Below, piece by piece: positions 11,992 through 13,488 of a DNA stretch of 64,000 nucleotides. Position 1 is the first letter of the stretch, and each line of letters starts with the position of its first letter. A program made the translations under genes and the position numbers. This DNA is from Escherichia coli (GTDB lineage Bacteria > Pseudomonadota > Gammaproteobacteria > Enterobacterales > Enterobacteriaceae), in the NCBI RefSeq assembly GCF_024298765.1, contig NZ_CP101210.1; one strand, written 5' to 3'. Under the pieces are notes generated by a model. The model did not search any database, was not told the DNA's origin, and was given only the letters and a program-made list of their open reading frames with translations.

Positions 11992-13488
11992 ATGGCTCAC
12001 CCTCATTTATTAGCGGAAAGAATTTCCCGCCTGAGCAGTTCGTTGGAAAAGGGGCTTTATGAACGTAGCCACGCCATCCGCTTGTGTTTATTAGCGGCAT
12101 TAAGTGGTGAAAGTGTGTTCCTCCTTGGCCCGCCAGGTATTGCCAAAAGTTTGATCGCCCGGCGCTTAAAATTCGCCTTTCAGAATGCCCGCGCGTTTGA
12201 ATATCTGATGACTCGCTTCTCCACGCCGGAAGAGGTTTTTGGTCCCCTTTCTATTCAGGCGCTAAAAGATGAAGGGCGCTATGAACGTTTAACCAGCGGT
12301 TACCTGCCGGAAGCAGAAATCGTCTTTCTGGATGAGATCTGGAAAGCGGGTCCGGCAATTCTTAATACCCTGCTCACCGCCATTAACGAGCGCCAGTTCC
12401 GCAACGGTGCACACGTAGAAAAAATCCCGATGCGCCTGCTGGTGGCGGCCTCCAACGAGCTGCCGGAAGCAGACAGCAGTCTGGAAGCGTTATATGACCG
12501 CATGCTGATTCGTCTGTGGTTAGATAAAGTGCAGGATAAAGCGAATTTCCGCTCCATGCTGACCAGTCAACAGGATGAAAACGACAATCCGGTTCCTGCC
12601 TCCTTGCAGGTCACAGATGAAGAATATGAACGCTGGCAGAAAGAGATTGGTGAAATTACGCTGCCCGATCATGTATTTGAGCTGATTTTTATGCTGCGCC
12701 AGCAACTGGATAAATTACCGGATGCGCCTTATGTCTCGGATCGTCGCTGGAAAAAAGCGATCCGCTTATTGCAGGCCAGCGCCTTTTTTAGCGGTCGCAG
12801 TGCCGTTGCCCCGGTAGATCTCATTTTGCTGAAAGATTGCCTGTGGTATGACGCGCAAAGCCTGAATTTGATACAACAACAAATTGATGTATTGATGACC
12901 GGTCATGCCTGGCAACAGCAAGGGATGTTGACCCGCCTGGGCGCGATTGTGCAACGTCACCTGCAACTCCAGCAGCAACAAAGCGATAAAACAGCCTTAA
13001 CGGTAATTCGTCTGGGCGGCATTTTCAGCCGTCGTCAGCAGTATCAACTTCCTGTTAACGTTACTGCTTCCACTCTGACTCTGCTGCTGCAAAAACCGTT
13101 AAAACTGCATGATATGGAAGTGGTTCATATCTCCTTTGAGCGTAACGCGCTGGAACAGTGGCTGAGTAAAGGTGGTGAAATTCGCGGCAAACTGAACGGT
13201 ATTGGCTTTGCCCAGAAACTGAATCTGGAAGTTGATAGTGCCCAACATCTTGTTGTACGCGATATAAGTTTACAAGGCAGTACGCTGGCACTTCCCGGTT
13301 CATCGGCTGAAGGTCTACCAGGTGAAATAAAACAACAACTGGAAGAGCTTGAAAGCGACTGGCGCAAGCAACACGCTTTATTCAGCGAACAGCAAAAATG
13401 TCTGTTTATCCCTGGCGACTGGTTAGGTCGCATTGAAGCCAGCCTACAGGATGTCGGTGCACAGATTCGCCAGGCACAACAATGCTAA
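11992..13488 (+). CDS. ravA: MoxR-family AAA+ ATPase
   Basis: Walker A GPPGIAKS; start placed at the ATG at 11992 ([10 protein letters not shown]) with RBS aaagga upstream; 498 aa. Confidence 0.93.

Follow-up and report, generated by a model that had tools for sequence, protein, structure and literature searches.

The closest described systems for the junctions analysed here are gene pairs translated by termination-reinitiation (Huber et al. 2019, 2023; Brown & Wade 2025). Coupling is most efficient when stop and start are spaced by −4 to +3 nt, negative values being overlaps, and a range of −8 to +10 is treated as predictive of termination-reinitiation (Huber 2023, PMC10666635). Lengthening the overlap lowers coupling faster than lengthening the spacing does, and in a synthetic series none was left at −25 nt (review PMC12548453). 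Among five overlapping E. coli pairs that were tested, four were coupled, and in these removal of the Shine-Dalgarno (SD) sequence cut reinitiation by 60-100%; the fifth, bioBF, showed no coupling. In E. coli, subunits of heteromeric complexes are 4.5-fold enriched among tightly spaced pairs. The much longer overlap of the phage MS2 coat and lysis genes (−50) has been explained by RNA unfolding or backward scanning.

A sequence-only reading of a 64-kb stretch of the E. coli chromosome (64,000 nt, the window hereafter) had singled out three tight overlaps, ravA/viaA, pstC/pstA and rnpA/yidD, as conserved and consistent with translational coupling. Compared to the termination-reinitiation pairs, pstC/pstA is alike, with the canonical TAATG arrangement at −1, an SD inside the upstream gene, and products belonging to one complex. 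The ravA/viaA pair is alike in that −7 falls inside the −8 to +10 range and in that its products interact, but it differs in that −7 is outside the enriched spacings (−4, −1 and −8) and in that viaA has no SD. At −37, rnpA/yidD differs by being out of range, as does mdtL/yidZ, a pair discussed below, at −26. The word tight is not appropriate for rnpA/yidD. The latter has some resemblance to MS2 coat/lysis: the yidD start, devoid of an SD, lies tens of nt upstream of the rnpA stop, so that ribosomes translating or terminating rnpA could influence yidD initiation. The MS2 model relies, however, on an inhibitory hairpin, and none is predicted around the yidD start.

Our main reading, to which we give a probability of about 0.8, is that the three overlaps are ordinary conserved junctions of known operons (ravA-viaA, pstSCAB-phoU and rpmH-rnpA-yidD-yidC), for each of which a mechanism can be proposed. 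The analysis establishes where the overlaps lie, which frames are read, that the starts are genuine and that the overlaps are conserved, while coupling is something that we infer throughout.

Gene content and overlaps of the window

The window lies on one side of oriC and extends from rrn and rbs through rnpA and rpmH. Several sequenced strains match the searched segments at 100% identity, and most of 5,426 complete E. coli genomes do so at 95-99%. Gene coordinates are those of the RefSeq annotation of identical or near-identical strains, transferred onto the window. The first part contains, in this order, 16S rRNA, yieP, mdtD, rbsRKBCAD, kup, ravA-viaA, asnA, asnC, mioC, mnmG and rsmG; the middle part atpIBEFHAGDC, glmUS, an lpf fimbrial operon, pstSCAB-phoU and bglGFBH; and the last part yieL to yidZ, mdtL, tnaBAC, mnmE, yidC, yidD, rnpA and rpmH. 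Two segments, 36000-42000 and 56000-64000, had a median of 6 match places per E. coli genome, meaning that they contain repeated elements.

Several features of the window were noticed besides the overlaps. The lpf operon, located between glmS and pstS (31555-36534), is a four-gene long polar fimbriae operon composed of lpfA, lpfB and lpfC of the O113 type and a fimbrial protein gene, and is annotated as LpfO113-type in the record of an identical strain. We know of no lpf operon at the glmS-pstS site of K-12. Two spacers have a different length from those of K-12, pstA-pstB (39759-39848; 90 nt here vs 182) and tnaB-mdtL (55989-56246; 258 nt here vs 131). Neither these differences nor the lpf operon have any effect on the overlaps, whose lengths (−7, −1, −37 and −26) are identical in K-12, with the same gene order and products. 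The yieL gene (47634-48803) is intact, with 389 codons, but has a frameshift in the otherwise almost identical strain 104, where an IS4-like ISVsa5 element, missing from the window, is also inserted between tnaC and mnmE (about 59300-59540). Upstream from rpmH, RefSeq annotates a 26-codon hypothetical protein on the minus strand (WP_122134670.1, 63624-63704), with a promoter-like site nearby (63525-63497). Finally, an Rfam scan of the whole window matched only 16S rRNA and the enterobacterial sRNA STnc410. The latter match is full-length (27645-27802, minus strand, 188 bits) and lies in the spacer between atpC and glmU, being antisense to the genes on either side.

Overlaps were counted over every pair of neighbouring annotated genes, 56 in all. 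This yielded four same-direction overlaps (ravA/viaA, pstC/pstA, rnpA/yidD and mdtL/yidZ) and a convergent one (mdtD/rbsR). The three overlaps listed by the sequence-only reading were all found where it had placed them: ravA and viaA share 7 nt at 13482-13488, pstC and pstA share one nucleotide at 38868, and yidD begins 37 nt inside the 3′ end of rnpA, at 62878-62914. In each case the two genes are on the same strand and their CDSs overlap. RefSeq starts give the same overlaps and place none elsewhere, and the K-12 gene-pair distances are again −7, −1 and −37 respectively (Huber et al. 2023 Table S2, PMC10666635). As for the reading frames, every annotated CDS of the overlap pairs translates cleanly within the window. 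These overlaps are therefore already known, both from the literature and from reference annotations.

The list was incomplete, however, as two overlaps had been omitted. The first, mdtL/yidZ, covers 26 nt on the minus strand (54813-54838; mdtL 54813-55988, yidZ 53879-54838), the two genes being co-oriented; no SD precedes yidZ (best pairing −3.0 kcal/mol), and the distance is also −26 in K-12 (Huber 2023 table, PMC10666635). The second, mdtD/rbsR, is an overlap of 35 nt of 3′ ends (3866-3900) between mdtD (plus strand, 2473-3900) and rbsR (minus strand, 3866-4858); it is convergent and has no bearing on translational coupling. Tight junctions without overlap were also present: rbsK/rbsR (+3, rbsR being annotated with a TTG start 3 nt past the rbsK stop), rbsA/rbsC (+4), rbsD/rbsA (+7), atpI/atpB (+8) and yidD/yidC (+2).

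Start sites at the three junctions

An overlap is only as good as the start that defines it, and we asked for each pair whether the downstream gene might in fact begin further inside its frame. If so, at least one of the overlaps would be an annotation artefact. The pstC (37909-38868) and pstA (38868-39758) CDSs, both on the plus strand, encode phosphate ABC transporter permeases. They meet in a TAATG at 38866-38870, where a single A, at 38868, is the last base of the pstC stop and the first base of pstA, hence the overlap of 1 nt. Other in-frame ATGs exist in pstA, at codons 3 and 6. However, a strong SD, GAGGGGG (38854-38860, plus strand), is found inside the 3′ end of pstC, with a predicted SD/anti-SD duplex of −11.1 kcal/mol. 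It stands 7 nt before the first ATG, but 13 and 22 nt from the two others, which is too far; this speaks for the pstA start at 38868.

The upstream gene ravA (11992-13488, plus strand) codes for a MoxR-type AAA+ ATPase of 498 aa and ends with a TAA stop, RefSeq and a clean open reading frame being in agreement. The downstream gene viaA (13482-14933, plus strand, RefSeq) codes for the VWA-domain partner of RavA, 483 aa long. Their 7-nt overlap reads ATGCTAA on the plus strand, the viaA ATG occupying 13482-13484 and the ravA TAA 13486-13488. Here too alternative starts exist in frame, a GTG at codon 9 and an ATG at codon 10, and there is no SD, the best SD-like pairing in the window being −2.5 kcal/mol. 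A comparison was made over the junctions of 80 Enterobacteriaceae species, to which the window was added (81 sequences). In viaA codons 4-9, diversity was 0.51 at the third position, compared to 0.13 and 0.07 at positions 1 and 2. Moreover, Met10 was replaced by Leu or Ile in 12 of the 81 sequences, whereas the ATG at the ravA stop was present in all. Variation mostly confined to third positions, together with the loss of Met10, means that codons 4-9 are translated and that viaA starts at 13482.

In the third pair, on the minus strand, rnpA (62878-63237) encodes the RNase P protein, with a GTG start and a TGA stop, and yidD (62657-62914) a membrane protein insertion efficiency factor of 85 aa, whose gene stops 2 nt short of yidC. 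On this strand the yidD ATG is read at 62912-62914 and the rnpA TGA at 62878-62880, and the 37 nt between these limits (62878-62914) are coding in two frames. Within the first 40 codons of yidD, no ATG, GTG or TTG stands in frame other than the ATG at 62914, and the N-terminus of the protein, MA(P/S)xLS.GS, is conserved in 17 Enterobacterales YidD proteins. For viaA and yidD, start and first residues are thus conserved, with selection at the protein level, and for pstA the overlap itself recurs in all six distant replicons described below. Given also the agreement between RefSeq and K-12 annotations, we regard a true start of viaA, pstA or yidD further downstream as very improbable, and this candidate was discarded on the basis of conservation, codon-position variation and SD spacing.

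A still less probable explanation is that the junctions are sites of programmed ribosomal frameshifting, leading to fusions such as RavA-ViaA. Geometry alone would permit it, as the frame of the downstream gene remains open upstream of its start, over 45 nt for viaA and 30 nt for yidD. Against this, inspection by eye revealed no slippery heptamer in the junction sequences, no stimulatory structure was predicted, and the Rfam scan of the whole window gave no match at the overlap junctions and no frameshift element. Right at each junction, the downstream gene possesses a conserved ATG of its own, and overlap length, hence the frame relation near the stop, differs among species. The frameshift or fusion reading was consequently rejected, on the missing slippery site and structure and on the conserved ATGs. 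The advice not to mistake the overlaps for frameshifts or annotation errors was accordingly sound, in view of the conserved ATGs, the codon-position variation and the SD spacing.

Conservation of the overlaps

The overlaps had been called conserved. This holds for all three pairs as far as the presence of an overlap is concerned, but in ravA/viaA its length is 7, 4 or 1 nt. In the 80 Enterobacteriaceae species, the stop/start overlap was kept 80 times out of 80, and a positive spacing was never seen (0/80). The spacing was −7 in 49 species, with ATGCTAA in 27 and ATGCTGA in 22; −4 in 18 species, with ATGA; and −1 in 13 species, with TAATG. Ten of the 18 species with −4 have Klebsiella/Raoultella-type sequences, in which the viaA ATG stands one codon downstream (10 of 80 species) and overlaps the ravA stop by 4 nt. 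A single substitution close to the junction, or a few of them, separates one length from another. We conclude that the tight junction of ravA and viaA is conserved, and that the length of 7 nt is not. A wider survey, limited to MoxR and ViaA pairs across genomes, gave a median distance of +3 and a first quartile of −4 (n=175; Huber 2023, PMC10666635).

The overlap leaves its mark on both proteins. Among the sequences with −7, the second viaA codon takes only the forms CTA, CTG and TTA, because its last two bases and the next A form the ravA stop; CTC at this codon was found in −1 species only. Replacing ATGCTAA by ATGATAA would shorten the overlap from −7 to −4 and turn Leu2 of ViaA into Ile, which occurs naturally at this place in other species. 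Conversely, the last codon of ravA, TGC (Cys498, 13483-13485), is dictated by the overlapping viaA ATG. The terminal Cys was seen in the −7 arrangement only and was absent from species with −4 or −1, which suggests that it is probably a by-product of the overlap rather than a selected residue.

For pstC/pstA, an overlap was present in 6 of 6 distant replicons, from five bacterial phyla and one archaeon, with a length of 1, 4 or 8 nt: −1 in Ralstonia, Planococcus and Haloferax, −4 in Deinococcus and Tsukamurella, and −8 in Hymenobacter. Across genomes, the median PstC-PstA distance is −1.1 (n=1559; Huber 2023, PMC10666635).

Among the three pairs, only rnpA/yidD has a fixed length: a stretch of exactly 37 nt recurs in Yersinia, Erwinia, Providencia and Rahnella (4 of 4), which makes five Enterobacterales genera in all. 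Both frames are conserved across it, with ...KLWRRH(C/R)R... in RnpA and MA(P/S)... in YidD. In 1,023 genomes, the median RnpA-YidD distance is −4 and the first quartile −16 (Huber 2023, PMC10666635), meaning that overlap is the rule and that 37 nt is unusually long. This length may be specific to Enterobacterales. A single change of TTA to TAA in rnpA would bring the spacing from −37 to −1, at the cost of the last 13 residues of RnpA. That the long overlap persists suggests a need for the tail of RnpA as well as for the N-terminus of YidD. We propose that the overlap exists as a consequence of this: the C-terminal tail of RnpA and the N-terminus of YidD, both under selection, would share the same DNA.

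These comparisons also bear on the possibility that the overlaps arose neutrally, through compaction of the genome and stop/start drift, the downstream genes being translated independently and coupling playing no role. Single-base changes let the ravA/viaA length switch freely between −7, −4 and −1 among close relatives, and the terminal Cys codon of ravA is confined to one of these arrangements, and both points favour drift. More generally, bioBF is an example of an E. coli overlap without coupling, and the abundance of −4 spacings partly reflects how readily they evolve (review PMC12548453). Open, unstructured start regions, such as those of the junctions, could moreover allow de novo initiation. 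Yet drift did not lead to positive spacing in any of the 80 species for ravA/viaA, and pstC/pstA stayed between −1 and −8 over five bacterial phyla and an archaeon. In addition, viaA has no SD that would ensure efficient independent initiation, and the 4.5-fold enrichment for complex subunits among tightly spaced E. coli pairs also counts against it. We therefore hold neutral drift to be unlikely, though less so than artefact or frameshifting, and keep to the reading of ordinary conserved operon junctions.

Prospects for translational coupling

Spacing and SD status separate the pairs. The two spacings within the predictive range are those of pstC/pstA and ravA/viaA, and the SD is strong for pstA and absent for viaA, yidD and yidZ. 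No stable hairpin was predicted over the downstream start at any junction (z = +0.1 to +1.8 relative to shuffled sequences). Coupling by RNA unfolding was dropped, as all junctions fold less stably than the shuffled controls. The papers searched contained no direct coupling experiment for ravA/viaA, pstC/pstA or rnpA/yidD, nor any initiation-site profiling or N-terminomics covering viaA, pstA, yidD or yidZ.

At −1 and with a strong SD, pstC/pstA is a textbook candidate, and its coupling can reasonably be inferred; PstC and PstA are the permease subunits of a single transporter and count as a complex in the K-12 table (Huber 2023, PMC10666635). Coupling of ravA/viaA is plausible, because −7 is within the predictive range and the products interact, and we would expect it to be partial. 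In published work, ravA and viaA form an operon of two genes, RavA and ViaA do interact, and the native level of ViaA is low; the K-12 table scores RavA/ViaA as not forming a complex (Huber et al. 2023, PMC10666635). For pstC/pstA, and probably for ravA/viaA, the ribosome ending the upstream gene would re-initiate at the adjacent start. Alternatively, the passage of ribosomes would keep the downstream start accessible. By either route, the outputs of two interacting proteins would be tied together. In the case of viaA, re-initiation would probably be inefficient for want of an SD, which would fit the low native ViaA level reported. The absence of an SD is itself conserved, with a median best pairing of −2.5 kcal/mol across the 81 junctions (80 species and the window).

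The situation is different for rnpA/yidD. The cluster rpmH-rnpA-yidD-yidC is conserved according to the literature, and RnpA/YidD is scored as no complex in the K-12 table (Huber 2023, PMC10666635). Coupling is doubtful for this pair, with little or none expected, because −37 exceeds the ∼−25 nt at which synthetic constructs lose it. The yidD gene has no SD (best pairing −3.5 kcal/mol), the region of its start (GGAAAAATTATG) is A/U-rich and, by prediction, unstructured, and the rnpA/yidD junction showed no terminator-like site on its coding strand. Coupling is no more likely than an independent initiation of yidD inside rnpA. Classical termination-reinitiation would be the less likely route, and yidD would more likely be initiated on its own, at this unstructured, A/U-rich, SD-less site; the passage of rnpA ribosomes may help or hinder this initiation.

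The constant length of the overlap, the lack of an SD and of local RNA structure, and a distance beyond that of synthetic reinitiation led us to envisage a more unusual route as well. Ribosomes could scan backwards over a long range from the rnpA stop, or initiation could depend on S1 at the A/U-rich site and be limited by rnpA traffic. We consider this improbable. If true, it would link the output of the YidD/YidC insertase to the synthesis of the RNase P protein.

At the other end of yidD (62655-62670, minus strand), the stop is 2 nt before the yidC ATG, and yidC also has no SD (−2.9 kcal/mol). In a recoding study, an AGR codon of yidD could not be changed into CGT, which its authors link to the RBS and mRNA context of an essential gene; the codon was marked there as overlapping this gene's initial mRNA and RBS motif (bioRxiv 10.1101/069385). 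This essential gene is presumably yidC, and the codon presumably the AGA near the yidD/yidC junction. The yidD/yidC junction is a better-supported case of codons controlling the translation of a neighbour than the three pairs of the initial list.

The overlaps leave current understanding unchanged. Their use is first in annotation, where no frameshift, pseudogene or mis-called start should be read into such junctions. They are also an example of the constraint that dual coding puts on a sequence, as seen for viaA codon 2 and for the last codon of ravA, and of the way in which the layout of an operon can set the ratio of partners, PstC to PstA and RavA to ViaA.
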